Shown piece by piece: positions 24,391 through 34,076 of a stretch of 54,457 bases of DNA. Source of the DNA: a virus; UHGV virus genome UHGV-0096558, one strand, 5' to 3'. The notes beneath the pieces are model-generated. The model was not told where the DNA came from. It saw only the letters and a program-made list of their open reading frames with translations, and searched no databases. The first letter of the stretch is position 1, and every line of letters starts with the position of its first letter. The position numbers were made by a program, and so were the translations under genes.

Positions 24391-24699
24391 AAATATTGGC
24401 CTCCTATGGTTAAAAATGAACGCGCGGGCGGGTATCCCATTAGCATTAGGTAGCAGTGATTGACCGCTTAACAGATCCCGCCGTTGCGTGATATTTGTTT
24501 TTCGCTTCGCAGCGACACCTAGTTTTTAAAGAGCATAAGGTATGCGCCTTTTTGTGCTATTCCGTTATCTTTTTTCTTGCGTCTTTGCAACTATGGCCTT
24601 ACCTTGTCTGCAAGTTTACAGAATGGCGTTTTTAGGTCAAGACTTGAAAAATACATTTTGTGACTTGTATCAAACTTTTTGAGGTTATAGGGTAGCGAC

Positions 24700-25347
24700 A
24701 TGAAAACAAAATGGTATGACTTAGCAAAGCAGCTCATGCGAGCGCAAGGTATGAGCCAAGATTCACTCGCGGATCTCATGGGGATAACTAAAGGCGGCCT
24801 GTCACACTGGCTTAACGGTCGCCGCGAGCCAAATCTTGAAGATATTGCGCGGATTATGCGGGCGCTTGGTCGTCGGCAATTCACTGTTACACATGATGGA
24901 ATGGTCATTGATGATTCTGTTTCTAACACGTTACCGGGAGCGCCGCAGCGTGATTTAGGTAGTTACCCGGTTGTTGACTGGAAGGACACAGTAAACAATA
25001 TGGATGATACAAGGCTATCAACATTACCACACGTTACGACTAGCGTTATTTGTTCAGATGATAGTTACTGGCTGGTTGCCAAAGGTGAATCAATGAACGC
25101 GCCGCAGGGGTTGAGCATCCCGGCGGGGACGATGATACTTGTTGACCCGCACGCGCCAGCTATTGACGGCAAACTGGTTATAGCCCAGCTTGAGGAAGGG
25201 CAGATACCGACGTTTAAACAGTTGATTATTGATGGAGGTCAAAGGCTTTTACGTTCGCTCAATCCGCTGTATCCGCCAATCCCTATGAATCCAGAATCAA
25301 AAATTATAGGCGTGGTGGTTGATGCGAAGATCGTAAACCTGCCATAA
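24700..25347 (+). CDS. cI: CI-like repressor (HTH plus S24 LexA-type autopeptidase domain)
   Basis: N-terminal HTH (SQDSLADLMGITKGGLSHWLNG); C-terminal ...LVAKGESM... and ...VVVDAKIVNL; divergent from replication operon. Confidence 0.85.
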   Translation: MKTKWYDLAKQLMRAQGMSQDSLADLMGITKGGLSHWLNGRREPNLEDIARIMRALGRRQFTVTHDGMVIDDSVSNTLPGAPQRDLGSYPVVDWKDTVNNMDDTRLSTLPHVTTSVICSDDSYWLVAKGESMNAPQGLSIPAGTMILVDPHAPAIDGKLVIAQLEEGQIPTFKQLIIDGGQRLLRSLNPLYPPIPMNPESKIIGVVVDAKIVNLP

Positions 25348-25352
25348 ACATT

Positions 25353-25378
25353 AGCCGCCGGATGGCGGCTTTACTTTG
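25353..25378 (+). terminator. terminator-like hairpin (AGCCGCC / GGCGGCT) after repressor gene, weak T-run
   Basis: Read directly. Confidence 0.4.
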
Positions 25379-25457
25379 CCCGGGAAACACCAAAACGTAA
25401 ACATAAAACGCCATTTATTGTTTAAATATCAATAATATATAAAATATTTTAAAAAAG

Positions 25458-25499
25458 TATACAAAATGGATTGACTCGGTGTTTTACGGGGCGTATATT
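25458..25499 (+). promoter_or_regulatory. candidate early promoter: motif TATACAAAATGGA then TTGACT (25471-25476), 17-nt spacer, TATATT (25494-25499); AT-rich upstream
   Basis: Near-consensus sigma-70 hexamers with 17-bp spacing. Confidence 0.5.
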
Positions 25500-25754
25500 G
25501 CGAGTCAAAGGAAGGTCGCAGGTAACAAAAAGCAACTTCCTGGCACTTTAAAAATCAGGCTTAACACCTTGTCAACCGTGGAGTAACTCCCCGATGGGGG
25601 ACCGAAAGCGGCACTGATAACAAGGCGCATGGGGTGTTTAAAGCGTTACATCCCCCACGAAACCGCACGCAAGGCGACGAGTCAGCTTGCTTGGAGTGAG
25701 CAAGGTCACGCTGGGAACGGCGATGATTGCGGGATTAGTTGAAAGATGTTAAGC

Positions 25755-25792
25755 CGCTCATTAACAATCTGGTCAGCCGCTGGAAGTGCGGC
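25755..25792 (+). promoter_or_regulatory. candidate nut-like site: boxA-like CGCTCATTAA (25755-25764) and boxB-like hairpin GCCGC-TGGAAGT-GCGGC (25776-25792)
   Basis: Inference from lambda nut architecture; lies in about 340-nt leader upstream of an arginine-rich small protein. Confidence 0.25.
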
Positions 25793-25847
25793 AATTAACG
25801 AAGATGATTTTTATTAAGTTTCATCAAGGATATACGGAGATCAGATT

Positions 25848-26138
25848 ATGAGCGTTACAATTATGTATGGCAAATGTGACAGTAAACTGAATGCCAGGGA
25901 ACGCAGAAGGATAAAAAGAGAAAACGAAAGAAAATCATCACCTGCAATCAATAAAACAGACAATGTGGATAAAGCTATTCGATTTGCAAACGAGGAAAGA
26001 TGCAAACCAAATAGCATTAAAGAACGTCGCAAAGGATCAGTAAAATGGTATACGGAAAATGAAAGCGGCAGCTACTACCACGCAACGCAACCACGCCATT
26101 TAGGGGAAAAACCCCTGGATAAAGTCCGCTACCATTAA
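25848..26138 (+). CDS. basic protein with N-terminal arginine-rich motif (RERRRIKRENERK); possible N-like antiterminator
   Basis: ORF track; first gene after long leader; arginine-rich motif reminiscent of lambda N. Confidence 0.5.
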   Translation: MSVTIMYGKCDSKLNARERRRIKRENERKSSPAINKTDNVDKAIRFANEERCKPNSIKERRKGSVKWYTENESGSYYHATQPRHLGEKPLDKVRYH

Positions 26139-26168
26139 TACAAAATGTAAACATTCGGAGGTGACATT

Positions 26169-26288
26169 ATGGTTATTCGGGCGCTTCAATTCAAACTGGC
26201 AGTAGCGGAAATGCTTCACGATGCCGAAATGTGGAGCGCCGCGAATAAAGCCTTATACATAGTGTTAACAGCACGGGAGATTAAATAG
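26169..26288 (+). CDS. small ORF, 39 aa
   Basis: Preceded by ATACAAAATGTAAAC and RBS GGAGG; stop overlaps Erf GTG start. Confidence 0.4.
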   Translation: MVIRALQFKLAVAEMLHDAEMWSAANKALYIVLTAREIK

Positions 26289-26929
26289 TGAAAACAGAGT
26301 TACATAAAAAGCTATGGACGATTCAGCAAACGCTGAACGCGCCGAAAAATCAGCGTAATAATTTCGGTGGATATAATTACAGGTCGGCGGAGGATATTTT
26401 AGAGGCGGTTAAACCACTACTTCAAAATATCACGCTGACTGTTAGTGATGAAATTGTCCTGATCGGCAATCGCTATTATGTGAAAGCAACGGCGACGCTA
26501 AGCGACGGTGAAGACGTAATAGCGGTAACTGCTTATGCCAGGGAGGAAGAAAGCAAGAAGGGTATGGACGCCAGCCAGCTAACAGGAGCAACATCAAGTT
26601 ACGCGCGTAAATATGCTTTGAACGGTTTATTCTGTATAGATGATGCTCGCGATCCTGATACTGATGCTTACGCGAAGCAGACAGGCCAGCAGCCGCGACA
26701 ACAGAAAAACCCACCAAAACAACAACCGCAGCAGAAGAAAGCGCCGCCAAATCCTGATGAAGTATTAGCACGTTTCTGTGATGCAGCAGCGAAAGCGCAG
26801 GACGCTAACAAGCTGCGTGAAATATTTGGCAAATGCTGGAAATTACTACCGGAAGGATCGGAACATCGAATCAAGGCAAAAGATGTTTATGACATCCGGG
26901 TAGCAGAGCTTAACGGGGAGATGGGTTAA
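26288..26929 (+). CDS. erf: Erf-family single-strand annealing recombinase
   Basis: Similarity to P22 Erf (…LNAPKNQ.N.FG.Y.YRS.EDILE.VKPLL…DEIVLIG.RYYVKATAT…GMDA.Q.TGATSSYARKY.LNGLF.IDDA…). Confidence 0.85.
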   Translation: MKTELHKKLWTIQQTLNAPKNQRNNFGGYNYRSAEDILEAVKPLLQNITLTVSDEIVLIGNRYYVKATATLSDGEDVIAVTAYAREEESKKGMDASQLTGATSSYARKYALNGLFCIDDARDPDTDAYAKQTGQQPRQQKNPPKQQPQQKKAPPNPDEVLARFCDAAAKAQDANKLREIFGKCWKLLPEGSEHRIKAKDVYDIRVAELNGEMG

Positions 26930-27345
26930 TGAGTTTAAATTCAATCACGCTGGGCGGGAATATCGGTAATGATATGGAGGTTCGCTACACACAAAACGGG
27001 AAAGCGATTGGTAGTTTTCCGTTAGCTGTAACGAATGGCTACGGCGATAATAAGCGGACAATGTGGATCACTTGCATGGTATTCGGTGAGCGCGCGGAAA
27101 AATTAGCGCCGCATATCCGCAAGGGTGGAAAAATAGTGGTAAGCGGTCGCCTGGATGTTCGGCAATATGACCGGAACGACGGCACGAAGGGGACGACGGT
27201 AGAAGTGGCAGTTAACGAATTTGAATTCATGAACGTTAACCAACAAGGCCAGCAGCAAGGCCAGCAGCAGAAAGCGCCACCGCCTCAAAATAATAACGGG
27301 AATAATCCGCCGCCGATGGACTTCGACGATGATATTCCGTTCTGA
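26929..27345 (+). CDS. ssb: single-stranded DNA-binding protein
   Basis: OB-fold pattern, Gln/Pro-rich linker, acidic C-terminal tail DFDDDIPF. Confidence 0.9.
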   Translation: MSLNSITLGGNIGNDMEVRYTQNGKAIGSFPLAVTNGYGDNKRTMWITCMVFGERAEKLAPHIRKGGKIVVSGRLDVRQYDRNDGTKGTTVEVAVNEFEFMNVNQQGQQQGQQQKAPPPQNNNGNNPPPMDFDDDIPF

Positions 27346-30134: not shown

Positions 30135-30327
30135 ACACTATAGGGAATGGAAAATTCCAGAAGCAGCAACAAAGGCAGCGCCAGGAAATTTTTCTGGCGT
30201 TTATTTTTATATGGATGGCAAATGGTATTTCGGCAGCAGGCCGGATCACTATTATCAGGAAATGTGCAAGCCTCACGTATGGGATATTAAAGAGCGCGTG
30301 AAAGGCGGGGTAATTGAGGACGTTTAA
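30124..30327 (+). CDS. hypothetical protein, 67 aa
   Basis: ORF track. Confidence 0.5.
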   Translation: MKFKHYREWKIPEAATKAAPGNFSGVYFYMDGKWYFGSRPDHYYQEMCKPHVWDIKERVKGGVIEDV

Positions 30328-30328
30328 A

Positions 30329-30565
30329 ATGCTTAAGAGCTTTTTTAACTGGTTGGGGGCGTGGCTTTTGGCTACGCTTTTTGTTTTCCTGGCGGCCCTG
30401 ACTGTTATCGGTGTTATTATGCTGGGGGCTATGTTTATTACGTGGTCGCTTCCTGAATTTAACGACATTGGGAATATTCTTTTTGCAGCCCGCGCTTTAT
30501 TGGCTGTGAGCGCATTCATTGGTTTTTGCTGGACTGCTGCGCCGGATTGGGATGATACATGGTGA
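30329..30565 (+). CDS. membrane protein, 78 aa, two predicted TM helices
   Basis: ATG at 30329 with RBS GAGGA; ORF track 30314..30565. Confidence 0.5.
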   Translation: MLKSFFNWLGAWLLATLFVFLAALTVIGVIMLGAMFITWSLPEFNDIGNILFAARALLAVSAFIGFCWTAAPDWDDTW

Positions 30566-31857: not shown

Positions 31858-32341
31858 CAGGTTATTAGCCTGCGTTTATGTCGCCGTTTTTGTGATCATC
31901 AATCTTATTGTTAATCATTGCGGCCCGTGGGTAATTCCGATCACCACGGTAGCCGCCGTGTGTGTCAATATGATGATCCGTGACCTCCTGTTATATGACG
32001 GCGGCCTGAAATGGTCGGCTACAACATGCGCCGCCGCTGGCGCAATCACGGTGCTGATAAATTACGACGCAGGAATGGTGGCGATCGCGTCATTCGTTGC
32101 GGTTGTTTCCGGTGCGCTTATTTCTGGCGGCGTTTACCGGGTTTTACCTGGTGATTTCGATTCGAAACGCTGGCCTGCAAATATAGCGTCCGCCATTGGT
32201 GATGCGTTAATTTTTCCTACGCTATCGTTTATGGCGTTTATGCCGGAAATATCAGCTATGCAATTCATCTCAAAAATGGCAGCGGTAACGGTGATCACCA
32301 TCATTATGCGCCGCTATTTCACGTTTGAGGGTAGAAAATGA
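31838..32341 (+). CDS. integral membrane protein, about 167 aa, 4-5 predicted TM helices
   Basis: ORF track 31796..32341; strongly hydrophobic. Confidence 0.5.
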   Translation: MERVTIDRLLACVYVAVFVIINLIVNHCGPWVIPITTVAAVCVNMMIRDLLLYDGGLKWSATTCAAAGAITVLINYDAGMVAIASFVAVVSGALISGGVYRVLPGDFDSKRWPANIASAIGDALIFPTLSFMAFMPEISAMQFISKMAAVTVITIIMRRYFTFEGRK

Positions 32342-33120
32342 GCAGGGCTAAACATTGGTTAAATAATTGGCTTAGAAGTTGGGTGGTGTGGTCGCTGTAC
32401 GACGGCAGCGGGTACGCCGTTAAAGATTGGGCGGAAGCAGGATATAAGTGCTATTGCTTCAACTATGACGGCGCAAATCACGGCGATTATGAAGGCGTTA
32501 AAATCATTCATCCAAATATTGAATACGTTAACGTATGGATTGACAACCATTTCCTGGTAATGTTCTCCCCTGAATTGTCTGTTTATCCAGAGCCTGACAT
32601 TATCTTGGGCTTTCCTCCATGCGACCATCTCGCCGTGTCCGGCGCTCGTTGGTTCGCTGATAAACGTAAAAAAGATCCTGACTTCCAGGTAAAGGCGGCG
32701 TATAACGCAAAAATTGTAGAAAAACTGGCGAATATGTATAACGTGCCGTGGATGGTGGAAAATCCAGTGGGCGCACTGTCAACGTTATGGCGTAAACCGG
32801 ATTTTATCTTCAATCCTTGCGCTTACGGTGGCTACCTGCCGGAAGATGACAAGCATCCTGCTTTCCCTGATGTTTACCCACCGCGCGACGCGTACACGAA
32901 GAAAACTTGCATATGGTGCGGCAACGGATTCAGGCAGCCGCTTTTTAGACCTGTAGATCTTAACTCTGGTGATAACCCTGGGTGGGCGAAAACCGGAGGC
33001 AGGACGAAACGAACAAAGATGATCCGCTCACTAACACCGCGTGGCTTTGCCCGTGCTGTATTCTTGGCTAACGACCGGGCCATCACGCGGACTACGCTTA
33101 ACCGCGTTTTACCGGACTAA
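32338..33120 (+). CDS. DNA cytosine-5 methyltransferase-like protein, 260 aa
   Basis: C5-MTase-like motifs: GFPPCDHLAVSG (PC motif) and MVENPVGAL (ENV motif); N-terminal Gly-rich motif. Confidence 0.65.
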   Translation: MSRAKHWLNNWLRSWVVWSLYDGSGYAVKDWAEAGYKCYCFNYDGANHGDYEGVKIIHPNIEYVNVWIDNHFLVMFSPELSVYPEPDIILGFPPCDHLAVSGARWFADKRKKDPDFQVKAAYNAKIVEKLANMYNVPWMVENPVGALSTLWRKPDFIFNPCAYGGYLPEDDKHPAFPDVYPPRDAYTKKTCIWCGNGFRQPLFRPVDLNSGDNPGWAKTGGRTKRTKMIRSLTPRGFARAVFLANDRAITRTTLNRVLPD

Positions 33121-33279
33121 AGTTCACAAAATGGCGTCATTGCGTGATATGGATCACATAATGGCGCTTTTCGCTTTGTTCTGGTGTATCCATATTGTAT
33201 ACTTCAAGCAAACAAAATGCTCTTTAAAAATCCGGCAGCGCTGAAATGCGTAGAAATCACCTGAAAAGGAGAGAGCATT

Positions 33280-33470: not shown

Positions 33471-34076
33471 ATGCAGAACCCTAAAAAACCCATAAGACGC
33501 CGTTGCAAATGCTGCGGCGTTTTTTTTGAGCCTAAATATCACAATCAAACGTGGTGCAGCGATGAATGTCTGGAAGAACTGAAGTTTGATCAGCTATGTC
33601 GCGACCGTGAGAAGGCTATGAAGGCTATGGAGCGGAAGAAACGCCGTGATAGCCAGCGTGAAGAACGCAACCGGAAGCGTAAACAGTTAAATCCGCGTAG
33701 TTATTGGATCAAACAAGTTCAAAATGTATTTAACGCCTATATTCGCGAACGTGACGCGCGCTTGCCGTGTATATCTTGCGGGACTTACTACGGTGAGCAA
33801 TGCGGGTGGGATGCAGGTCATTACAGGACGGTAGCCGCCGCCGGACACCTTCGATTTAACGAGGATAATTGCCATAAACAATGCAGACACTGCAACCAGA
33901 CATTAGACGGCAACATTGGAGGATATCGCCCGGCACTGATTCGAAAAATTGGCCTCGCCAGGGTGGTAGCACTGGAGAACAACAATGATACGCATAAATG
34001 GACGATCGCAGAATGTAAGGAGCTAATAAACATCTATCAGGCGAAATTGGACGCCTTAAGGAGAAAGGCAGCATGA
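33471..34076 (+). CDS. ninG: NinG / Rap recombination protein
   Basis: Similarity to lambda NinG (…RRCK..C...F.P....Q.WCS.EC…PRSYWIKQ.Q..FNAYIRERDA.LPCISCGT…DAGHYRT.AAA..LRFNE.N.HKQC..CNQ…). Confidence 0.85.
   Translation: MQNPKKPIRRRCKCCGVFFEPKYHNQTWCSDECLEELKFDQLCRDREKAMKAMERKKRRDSQREERNRKRKQLNPRSYWIKQVQNVFNAYIRERDARLPCISCGTYYGEQCGWDAGHYRTVAAAGHLRFNEDNCHKQCRHCNQTLDGNIGGYRPALIRKIGLARVVALENNNDTHKWTIAECKELINIYQAKLDALRRKAA

Follow-up and report, generated by a model that had tools for sequence, protein, structure and literature searches.

An N-like protein gene, candidate nut sites and an optional structured leader module in the early operon of a mEp021-like temperate coliphage

Between a predicted early promoter and the first ORF behind it, the viral DNA analysed here (UHGV-0096558, 54,457 nt, hereafter the window) carries a long leader. 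This raises the question of whether the leader serves antitermination by the protein encoded downstream, acts as an RNA in its own right, or does both. There is high confidence that the region comprises the leader of the rightward early operon, together with its first gene, in a mEpimmI-group phage with Gp17/nut antitermination. The features of the locus are collected in Table 1.

Table 1. Predicted features of the early region in the window
Feature	Coordinates	Strand	Description
Candidate nutL	24502-24535	-	boxA TGCTCTTTAA, spacer AAACTAGGTG, boxB UCGCU-GCGA-AGCGA
Immunity repressor, homolog of mEp021 Rep021 (gp15; mEp021_15)	24700-25347	+	HTH_3 plus Peptidase_S24
Intrinsic terminator after repressor gene	25353-25370	+	AGCCGCCGGATGGCGGCT then TTTACTTT; TERM_1 in mEp021 annotation
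Early rightward promoter	25471-25499	+	TTGACT-17-TATATT, 10/12 consensus positions matched
boxA', fourth boxA-plus-spacer-like element	25543-25559	+	GCACTTTAAAAATCAGG; long-leader phages only
Optional structured leader domain, 196 nt	25558-25755	+	Folding, indel, low diversity
Domain-internal hairpin	25686-25704	+	CUUGCU(U)-GGAGU-(G)AGCAAG; only domain helix with compensatory changes
nutR1	25755-25792	+	boxA CGCTCATTAA 25755-25764, spacer CAATCTGGTCA, boxB GCCGC-UGGAAGU-GCGGC 25776-25792
gp17 homolog, 96-aa N-like early antitermination protein	25848-26138	+	RBS GGAG at 25836-25839
39-aa Kil-like ORF, next gene of operon	26169-26288	+	Pfam Lambda_Kil, PHROG
ERF	26288-26929	+	From mEp021/MagusPhagus annotations
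SSB	26929-27345	+	From mEp021/MagusPhagus annotations
Candidate nutR2	33218-33251	+	boxA TGCTCTTTAA, spacer AAATCCGGCA, boxB GCGC-UGAAAU-GCGU

Region 25350-26140 showed 93.6-97% identity with phages mEp021, mEp010, mEp515, and MagusPhagus. The gene order, i.e., repressor, terminator, leader, gp17, small ORF, ERF, and SSB, was common with mEp021 and MagusPhagus. As judged by its sequence, the window is a temperate coliphage of the mEpimmI group (mEp021-like). Gp17 of mEp021 has been described as an N-lambda-like protein for early antitermination (PMC11893012, citing Valencia-Toxqui et al. 2023, Arch Virol 168:92). According to PMC11893012, Gp17 acts at three sites, of which nutR1 precedes gp17, nutL lies upstream of the repressor gene, and nutR2 follows gp32, and its residues R17, R19, R20, and R24 are fully conserved across the mEpimmI group. 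The same source reports Gp17-dependent terminator read-through and growth that requires host Nus factors for mEp021 and the mEp collection. The Gp17/nut system is reported to be conserved in 48 genomes of the group.

The leader and the gp17 homolog of the window very probably correspond to the early antitermination unit already known from mEp021. The antitermination finding of the sequence-only reading was correct, but it is not new, because Gp17 has already been tested in this close relative. The window and mEp021 agree in the Gp17 homolog (94.8% amino acid identity to mEp021_17, MH706966.1) and its conserved arginines, in gene order, in having a nut site ahead of gp17, and in the type of immunity repressor. 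The long leader with boxA' and the structured domain, described below, is found in mEp021 too. Only minor sequence differences separate them, and the window lacks the separate 81-aa HTH gene (mEp021_14) that in mEp021 stands between the replication gene and nutL.

A leader of about 340 nt behind an early promoter had been predicted from the sequence, and this arrangement was recovered. The -35 and -10 hexamers of the sigma-70-type promoter showed no variation in an alignment of five diverged relatives. Transcription would start near 25506, which gives a leader of about 342 nt to the ATG of gp17, or 348 nt when counted from the end of the -10 hexamer. The repressor encoded upstream matched HTH_3 (5e-13) and Peptidase_S24 (5.3e-19) in Pfam. 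Intrinsic-terminator-like sites were located downstream at 30177-30201, 30355-30381, and 33501-33519. A promoter-like site on the minus strand (25873-25845) was set aside; its -10 hexamer, complementary to the start region of gp17, lacks conservation in mEp021.

The first gene had been described as coding for a 96-aa N-like protein with an arginine-rich N-terminal motif, and the homology to mEp021 Gp17 agreed with this. The motif occupies residues 15-29 (NARERRRIKRENERK) and contains R17, R19, R20, R21, and R24. The protein hit PHROG 271, 'anti-termination protein N-like', over residues 1-95 (E = 6.8e-12), and the MagusPhagus homolog is annotated as 'anti-termination protein N-like protein'. 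Like lambda N, it is a small, basic product of the first gene in an early operon, with its arginine-rich motif at the N-terminus. However, BLASTP against lambda N found no pairwise similarity, and the Pfam family N_peptide (PF25694) scored 16.6 bits, below the cut-off of 27.9 (E = 0.011). No match was found in PDB or NCBIfam. The Kil-like ORF that follows gp17 matched phrog_34942 (6.7e-30), phrog_2055 (Kil; 4.5e-4), and Pfam Lambda_Kil (4.7e-5), the last with 23.2 bits, under the cut-off of 27.6. The kil-like, erf, and ssb genes after the leader make a context resembling the lambda pL operon.

The boxA-like sequence and boxB-like stem-loop that had been proposed in the leader were located as nutR1. 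Its boxA is an exact match, and the boxB hairpin starts 11 nt after it. Candidate nutL is carried by the leftward transcript and sits upstream of the repressor gene, where PMC11893012 places nutL. Candidate nutR2 lies just behind a 260-aa ORF (32338-33120), a position that would fit 'downstream of gp32' in that source, on the assumption that the 260-aa ORF is gp32. All three sites were matched to the published ones by position, the published sequences existing as figure logos. The three nut boxAs (CGCTCATTAA, TGCTCTTTAA, and TGCTCTTTAA) are related to the lambdoid boxA CGCUCUU(U)A and all stand on the transcribed strand, with a boxA-boxB spacer of 10-11 nt; in lambdoid nut sites the distance is about 8-11 nt.

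The relaxed boxA motif YGCTCWTTAA occurred four times in the window against 0.69 expected, and four or more occurrences were seen in none of 100 shuffles. The 17-nt boxA-plus-spacer motif also occurred four times, against 0.03 expected and always oriented with transcription; it was derived from the sites themselves, and therefore the YGCTCWTTAA count is the independent figure. Of the YGCTCWTTAA matches, the fourth (minus strand, 30287) was rejected as a nut site, being antisense to the operon and without a hairpin after it. All boxAs except boxA' are followed, 2-4 nt after GG, by a 4-5-bp hairpin with the loop core U-GNRA(N)-W. The resulting boxB rule reads stem, C-U, GNRA, A or U, G, closing stem, and the stems covary.

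RNA structure prediction had been named as a check on the several hairpins noted in the leader. The whole leader folded better than shuffled sequence (MFE -115.6 kcal/mol, z = -3.45), whereas the isolated 51-nt nut stretch was energetically unremarkable (z = -0.42). This is expected for a hairpin of 5 bp, and the support for the nut site comes from relatives rather than thermodynamics. A pairing of boxA (CGCUCAU) with the gp17 start (AUGAGCG) appeared in the MFE fold, and it was discarded as a regulatory feature, as mEp021 has AUGACAG there.

The conservation of boxA and boxB in related phages, on which the nut site claim had been made to depend, was observed in every relative examined, and the claim is not refuted. 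The boxA and boxB hairpin stood at the nutR1 position each time, with compensatory changes in the stems, i.e., GCUAC/GUAGC, UCGC/GCGA, and GCAC/GUGC. Six different boxB stem sequences were found, all of them fully paired. One variant, L043 (GCCAC...GCGGC), breaks a stem pair. The nutL site was nearly invariant in all relatives, and its one loop variant, GCGA to GUGA, kept GNRA. The class-1 nutR1 loop (UGGAAGU), in its presumed fold, is one base larger than the GNRA tetraloops of the other sites. Classes of Gp17 with different arginine-rich motifs have different nutR1 boxB sequences.

The proposed course of events is as follows. Once repression, presumably by the upstream repressor, is lifted, RNA polymerase would start at the early promoter and transcribe the leader including nutR1, then gp17. 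The arginine-rich motif of Gp17 would bind the GNRA-type boxB hairpin, and NusB-S10 would bind boxA, both by analogy with lambda and P22. Host Nus factors on boxA together with Gp17 would make the polymerase termination-resistant, so that it could pass presumptive terminators downstream and reach the kil-like gene, erf, ssb, and the genes beyond them. On the leftward transcript the same Gp17 would act at nutL, and on the rightward transcript it would act again farther along, at nutR2. The ORF homology, site positions, shared site architecture, and boxB stem covariation were established here by sequence. The functional evidence comes from mEp021, for which PMC11893012 gives antitermination activity of Gp17 and the use of three nut sites; it also gives the group as Nus-dependent.

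The nut sites share with those of lambda a boxA, a spacer, a 5-bp hairpin, and a loop of GNRA type with a closing U-A or U-U pair. The boxB of lambda is GCCCU-GAAAA-AGGGC, and in contrast to the lambda pentaloops, the majority of the boxB loops here have the form of a plain tetraloop (GAAA, GCGA). The boxB of P22, a phage whose N analog is gp24, is GCGCU-GACAA-AGCGC; it has the CGCU...AGCG stem and a GNRA-like loop in common with the nutL boxB, although the loop has four bases here and five in P22, and the likeness is drawn from the RNA sites only. In lambda, nutL lies about 35 nt from pL, whereas the long-leader phages have about 250 nt between the transcription start and nutR1. The repressor gene, unlike that of lambda, is co-directional with the N-like gene and immediately precedes the promoter of the latter. 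Both systems have a kil-like gene and genes for recombination downstream. Nus factor dependence is shared as well, as PMC11893012 gives it for the mEp phages, and the mEp021-type system has three nut sites against two in lambda (PMC11893012).

The first 250 nt or so of the leader, i.e., its 5' two-thirds, form a module of boxA' and the structured domain, which is present or absent as an indel. Phages mEp021, mEp010, and mEp515 have the module and mEp044 does not; mEp013 and mEp554, which gave partial two-piece matches only, probably lack it. The boxA' element is an inverted repeat of nutL, and in alignment it agrees with the nutR2 boxA plus spacer at 16 of 18 bases. It stands at the position of the single boxA of the short-leader relatives (43 nt separate it from the -10 hexamer; for the boxA of mEp044 this distance is 42 nt). 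No boxB hairpin follows boxA' in 48 copies across loci.

The domain is closed by a helix of 17 bp, in which 25558-25576 pairs with 25738-25755. It encloses one arm at 25577-25660 and another at 25665-25732, and several of the loops are of GNRA type. The closing helix, as modelled, would bring boxA' next to nutR1. The nutR1 region of the long-leader phages is a composite, in which the putative boxA' (GCACUUUAAAAAUCAGG) takes the original boxA position and is followed by the domain and then by a second boxA with boxB. The module is most likely a cis-acting leader RNA element. It may be conjectured that it is processed by RNase III, and that boxA' shields the long untranslated RNA from Rho.

Relatives of the domain were searched in several collections. 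Only four phages of the phage collection, all of mEp type, carried it, and no match was found in the plasmid collection. It was present as part of prophages in 31 of 5426 E. coli genomes, always at least 92% identical, at one place per genome and at the same locus. IMG/VR, searched with a 15-mer, returned close relatives and chance matches only, and metagenomes, searched with a 19-mer, returned only relatives at least 96% identical besides chance matches. GTDB species genomes, searched with a 20-mer, gave four chance matches and no homolog; at least three of these matches were inside protein-coding sequence of acI Actinobacteria, and one was in Prevotella. An nhmmer profile of the domain detected no second copy in any of the sequence collections searched. 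No homolog outside the mEpimmI phage group was found in the phage, plasmid, E. coli, IMG/VR, GTDB, and metagenome searches. Rfam gave no match at gathering thresholds in the whole window, and none up to E = 10 covering 25500-25760; therefore, the leader has no support as a known sRNA, riboswitch, ribozyme, or group I intron. A MITE-like mobile element was also considered, as the module has 13-nt inverted repeats and flanking 17-nt boxA-like repeats, but it is single copy and always at this locus. The left repeat is invariant and the right one varies, and therefore they are not a fresh target duplication.

What the module does was weighed among three readings. It may be an RNA with a function of its own. 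One form would be a stable small RNA, freed when the 17-bp closing helix is cut, for instance by RNase III; others would be a cis-acting element that needs boxA but not Gp17 and counters Rho or termination, or a control on how available nutR1 is. This reading is considered plausible, though somewhat short of an even chance. The small RNA that had been suggested as an alternative for the leader would concern this domain and not the nut site. Such a function would add to the nut/Gp17 explanation without replacing it. Diversity is lower in the module than anywhere else in the region (pi 0.000 in boxA' and 0.018 in the domain, or 0.011 without one hairpin region), compared with about 0.07 in flanking non-coding sequence and 0.13-0.19 at third codon positions of repressor, gp17, and erf. 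The drop in diversity is sharp-edged at the module ends, but a recent spread of the segment by recombination could also give low diversity. The domain folds better than shuffles (MFE -76.6 kcal/mol, z = -2.70), yet the opposite strand folds equally well (z = -2.80). The hairpin at 25686-25704 has three pairs changed on both sides, one changed on one side, and none broken, as in the variant AUCACU...AGUGGU of the RM9245-class loci, and at 25714-25717 the tetraloop is either GGAA or GAAA. However, 61 of the 65 predicted domain pairs are invariant or vary on one side only, and covariation is therefore nearly uninformative for the domain. A function as RNA is also favored by boxA' occupying the functional boxA position of short-leader phages, and by PGAP calling no gene there in the 31 E. 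coli genomes. Against it, the module is dispensable, as mEp044 and probably mEp013 and mEp554 show; no terminator or internal promoter was found that would delimit a separate transcript; and neither an Rfam family nor a homolog outside the phage group turned up in the collections searched. In addition, boxA' reads GCACUUUAA and not GCUCUUUAA, which leaves Nus factor binding putative.

The same module could be a functionless relic of illegitimate or unequal nut recombination, composed of a nutL/nutR2-type boxA, foreign DNA, and the resident nutR1. It would then be tolerated since the closing helix keeps it out of the way. The flanking 17-nt boxA-like direct repeats (13 positions identical), the terminal inverted repeats (GGCTTAACACCTT and AAGATGTTAAGCC), the closer likeness of boxA' to nutR2 and nutL than to nutR1, and the existence of phages both with and without the module are consistent with such an origin. 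However, a neutral segment is expected to vary at least as much as the neighboring non-coding sequence, and the observed variation is four to six times less. The sole variable helix changes by compensatory substitutions, and the lack of a second copy, with one place per genome in E. coli and none in plasmids or other species (two probes), also argues against a relic, which is considered unlikely. The remaining candidate is a small protein encoded in the leader by a 37-aa ORF (25629-25742), annotated in mEp021 (mEp021_16, 'hypothetical protein') and MagusPhagus. This ORF is open in all 16 sequence variants without frameshift, although substitutions are few and its staying open therefore carries little weight; nonsynonymous to synonymous changes, about 9 to 5, are not clearly neutral. 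It has no Pfam or PHROG match, was not called by PGAP in the 31 genomes, and has no convincing Shine-Dalgarno sequence at a suitable distance; AAGG stands 3 nt from the ATG, while the annotated mEp021 RBS is 28 nt away. Its start codon lies within a predicted helix, and the changes clustered at 25686-25704 alter the encoded residues radically (Q to W, G to C, and S to I) but keep the base pairing. A coding function is accordingly very improbable. Minus-strand ORFs of the leader (25505-25630 and 25561-25668) were rejected, as one-base insertions in the variants L042 and L043 fall within them.

For the module, rrn antitermination offers an analogy. There, too, a boxA-like element stands directly before the 5' strand of a long-range helix, the helix closes a structured untranslated RNA, and a second boxA comes after the 3' strand. 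Unlike in rrn, where boxA precedes the long-range 16S processing stem, boxA' is off consensus, the domain has 196 nt and is not rRNA, and there is no sequence relation. The put RNAs of HK022 are protein-independent antiterminators of about 70 nt with two stem-loops, and they replace N. As described, they resemble the module in being structured RNA in the early operon leader of a phage, but the phage here has an N-like protein, and the domain is larger and dispensable.

The main finding is an independent recovery, from sequence only, of a system characterized in mEp021, and is small as a discovery. What is added is the base-level coordinates of three candidate nut sites and the comparative boxB rule. 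Neither the module of boxA' and domain nor its presence/absence polymorphism is mentioned in PMC11893012, which gives mEp044, mEp013, and mEp554 as isolated and grown as phages. That boxA' and the domain form a new functional phage RNA under strong purifying selection is a tentative and rather doubtful proposal. If it is true, the module might be a Nus-factor-loaded, rrn-like element through which a stable non-coding RNA of the early leader is protected, chaperoned, or set free, or it might be a sensor gating the assembly of the Gp17 antitermination complex. The module is a natural presence/absence polymorphism in otherwise near-identical, culturable phages, and therefore leader swaps could directly test its effects on antitermination, Rho sensitivity, and RNA processing.

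The region at 25350-26140 showed 93.6-97% identity to Escherichia phages MagusPhagus, mEp010, mEp515, and mEp021. Of 5426 complete E. coli genomes, 35 carried the region as a single-copy prophage. The 96-aa ORF was assigned as the counterpart of mEp021_17, and the corresponding ORF of MagusPhagus is annotated as 'anti-termination protein N-like protein'. Its product was 94.8% identical to mEp021 Gp17 and matched PHROG 271, 'anti-termination protein N-like', in profile search (E = 6.8e-12). The Pfam N_peptide score was 16.6 bits, under the 27.9-bit threshold. No match was found to lambda N by BLASTP, nor in NCBIfam or PDB. The arginine-rich N-terminal motif noticed in the sequence-only reading was located at residues 15-29, i.e., NARERRRIKRENERK. 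According to PMC11893012, citing Valencia-Toxqui et al. 2023, each of the group's 48 genomes conserves R17, R19, R20, and R24 of Gp17, and 45 conserve R21; all of the arginines reported as conserved were present in the window protein.

The leader, claimed at about 340 nt, was approximately 342 nt when counted from the inferred transcription start. Structure prediction, which had been proposed as a check, gave a better fold than shuffled sequence (z = -3.45). The 39-aa ORF matched Pfam Lambda_Kil at 4.7e-5, slightly under the cut-off, and phrog_2055 'Kil' at 4.5e-4; by these profile matches its product resembles Kil. With a Kil-like neighbour next to an N-like gene, the operon thus resembles a lambda pL operon. 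At 24391-24699, the window had no counterpart of mEp021_14, a separate 81-aa MarR-like HTH gene placed between the replication gene and nutL in mEp021; similarity to it was confined to the 332-aa replication protein, in its N-terminal wHTH (30% identity).

Positions of the early-region features in the window
Feature	Position	Strand	Details
LexA/CI-type repressor gene	24700-25347		HTH_3 + Peptidase_S24
Intrinsic terminator	25353-25370		after repressor gene
Promoter-like site	25471-25499		TTGACT-17-TATATT; ends A/T-rich region
Long untranslated leader			between promoter-like site and 96-aa ORF
boxA'	25543-25559		GCACTTTAAAAATCAGG; 43 nt from -10 hexamer in long leaders
196-nt domain	25560-25755		directly after boxA'
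Predicted closing helix	25558-25576 with 25738-25755		17 bp (9 + 3 + 5), one mismatch, one bulge
nutR1	25755-25792	+	boxA CGCTCATTAA (25755-25764), spacer CAATCTGGTCA, boxB GCCGC-UGGAAGU-GCGGC (25776-25792)
96-aa ORF (gp17 homolog)	25848-26138		GGAG at 25836-25839
39-aa ORF	26169-26288		next gene after gp17 homolog
ERF recombinase gene, then SSB gene			last two features of stretch 24700-27345
nutL (candidate)	24535-24502	-	boxA TGCTCTTTAA, spacer AAACTAGGTG, boxB UCGCU-GCGA-AGCGA
nutR2 (candidate)	33218-33251	+	boxA TGCTCTTTAA, spacer AAATCCGGCA, boxB GCGC-UGAAAU-GCGU; directly past 260-aa ORF 32338-33120
Intrinsic-terminator-like hairpins with U tracts	30177-30201, 30355-30381, 33501-33519	+	rightward operon; between nutR1 and nutR2, also just after nutR2
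Fourth YGCTCWTTAA match	30287-30296	-	CGCTCTTTAA

The window contained four matches to the motif YGCTCWTTAA, where 0.69 would be expected, and none of 100 shuffles reached four. Three of the matches lay on the transcribed strand of an early transcript, each followed at equal distance by a small hairpin. One of them was the boxA-like sequence of the earlier claim, found as an exact boxA, and the claimed boxB-like stem-loop lay 11 nt further on (nutR1). The fourth was antisense to the early operon and had no hairpin; it is probably a chance match. PMC11893012 describes Gp17 sites upstream of gp17 (nutR1), upstream of the repressor gene (nutL), and downstream of gp32 (nutR2), and the positions in the window fit these descriptions. 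It also reports that nutL and nutR2 are more alike than either is to nutR1, in agreement with the window. The two candidate sites have the layout of the system: boxA, then a spacer of 10 nt, then a GNRA hairpin. The terminator-like hairpins of the rightward operon may be where Gp17-dependent read-through takes place. When the whole leader was folded, the MFE structure paired CGCUCAU of boxA (25755-25761) with the complementary gp17 start, AUGAGCG (25848-25854); this pairing is not conserved in mEp021 (AUGACAG) and is therefore probably accidental.

Conservation in relatives, the lack of which had been named as refuting, was compared over 77 related loci. After every such boxA came a 4-5-bp hairpin with the loop core U-GNRA(N)-A/U. 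Six fully paired stems were found, i.e., GCCGC/GCGGC, GCUAC/GUAGC, UCGC/GCGA, GCAC/GUGC, GCGC/GCGU, and ACGC/GCGU, and one nutL variant changed the loop from GCGA to GUGA, retaining GNRA. This architecture is shared with lambda and P22 boxB, which supports the antitermination reading. The nutR1 boxB varied among Gp17 classes with differing arginine-rich motifs: stem GCCGC and loop GGAAG with NARERRRIKRENERK, and loop GAAA with stem GCUAC for NARKRRRMKRAAEQD, UCGC for NARTIRRMKRRAAEQ, and GCAC for NARERRRLKRAGKVK. nutL was identical across all classes, so that boxB recognition, judging from these sequences, must be fairly tolerant. Differing nutR1 boxB stems and arginine-rich motifs occurred in relatives with Gp17 62-73% identical, at loci L003 (2925-2975), L053 (1722-1775), and L054 (1900-1950); these protein/RNA pairs are a natural set that could serve to map recognition specificity. 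Metagenome contig OQVL01004386.1 (L070, 6803-6840) switched from phage to unrelated sequence midway through nutR1 boxB, the latter with a putative ComM/Mg-chelatase-type gene judged by eye. It is probably an assembly chimera.

Two leader forms were found among the aligned relatives. In the window, mEp021, mEp010, mEp515, MagusPhagus, and the RM9245 class of relatives, the leader was long, at 322-351 nt from the -10 hexamer. mEp044 and the PAR prophage had short leaders of 134-135 nt; those of L053 and L054, two lineages that diverge further, were similarly short. The short leaders gave a gap-free alignment with the initial 55 nt of the long leader, and their single boxA lay 42 nt from the -10 hexamer. 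At boxA', the long leader matched nutR2 boxA plus spacer at 16 of 18 bases and fitted the 17-nt motif common to the nut sites. The element was independently recovered by repeat search as an inverted counterpart of nutL, and boxB was absent after it in all 48 copies. Long-leader mEpimmI phages carried the module, boxA' and the domain following it, and short-leader ones lacked it. Because short-leader mEp phages, e.g., mEp044, were isolated and propagated, according to PMC11893012, the module is dispensable.

Over 26 distinct long-leader loci, diversity (pi) was 0.000 in boxA' and 0.018 in the domain (0.011 without 25688-25709). It was 0.048 in nutR1 (25756-25792), about 0.07 in adjacent non-coding DNA, and 0.13-0.19 at third positions of codons in the repressor, gp17, and erf genes. 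No other stretch of the region varied as little as the module, and the drop started and stopped at its edges. No Rfam family matched it, and the sequence searches run found no homologs outside mEpimmI phages. The domain 20-mer GCGGCACTGATAACAAGGCG also occurred in one Prevotella genome and, within conserved protein-coding sequence, in the genomes of three acI Actinobacteria (L058-L061); the similarity ended at 21 nt and was ascribed to chance.

In the predicted fold, the closing helix ends on the first base of nutR1 boxA and encloses two arms with several GNRA-type loops. The domain fold was better than shuffles (z = -2.70), but the opposite strand was equally good (z = -2.80). In the only variable helix, 25686-25704, three substitutions were compensatory on both sides and one was a G-U change, and the tetraloop at 25714-25717 was GGAA or GAAA. 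The other predicted pairs were invariant and so speak neither for nor against the fold. Coding of the annotated 37-aa ORF at 25629-25742 (mEp021_16) is unlikely: it belonged to no family and lacked a usable RBS, radical amino-acid replacements result from the compensatory cluster, and PGAP called no gene at this position in 31 genomes. Most likely, the module is an RNA element of the leader that acts in cis and is under selection; less probably, it is a relic of recombination with a recent spread. As a cis-acting element, it would bring boxA' beside nutR1 through the closing helix. It may serve in RNase III processing, in Nus-dependent shielding of the long untranslated RNA from Rho, or in small-RNA release, the last recalling the alternative first offered for the leader.

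The earlier observation of a structured leader, nut site, and arginine-rich ORF is confirmed, and the N-like antitermination reading is supported. [quoted passage not shown] 2023). No description of the module was found in that paper. The present analysis locates the three nut sites to the base, gives a comparative boxB rule, and describes an optional, highly conserved module of boxA' and its domain.
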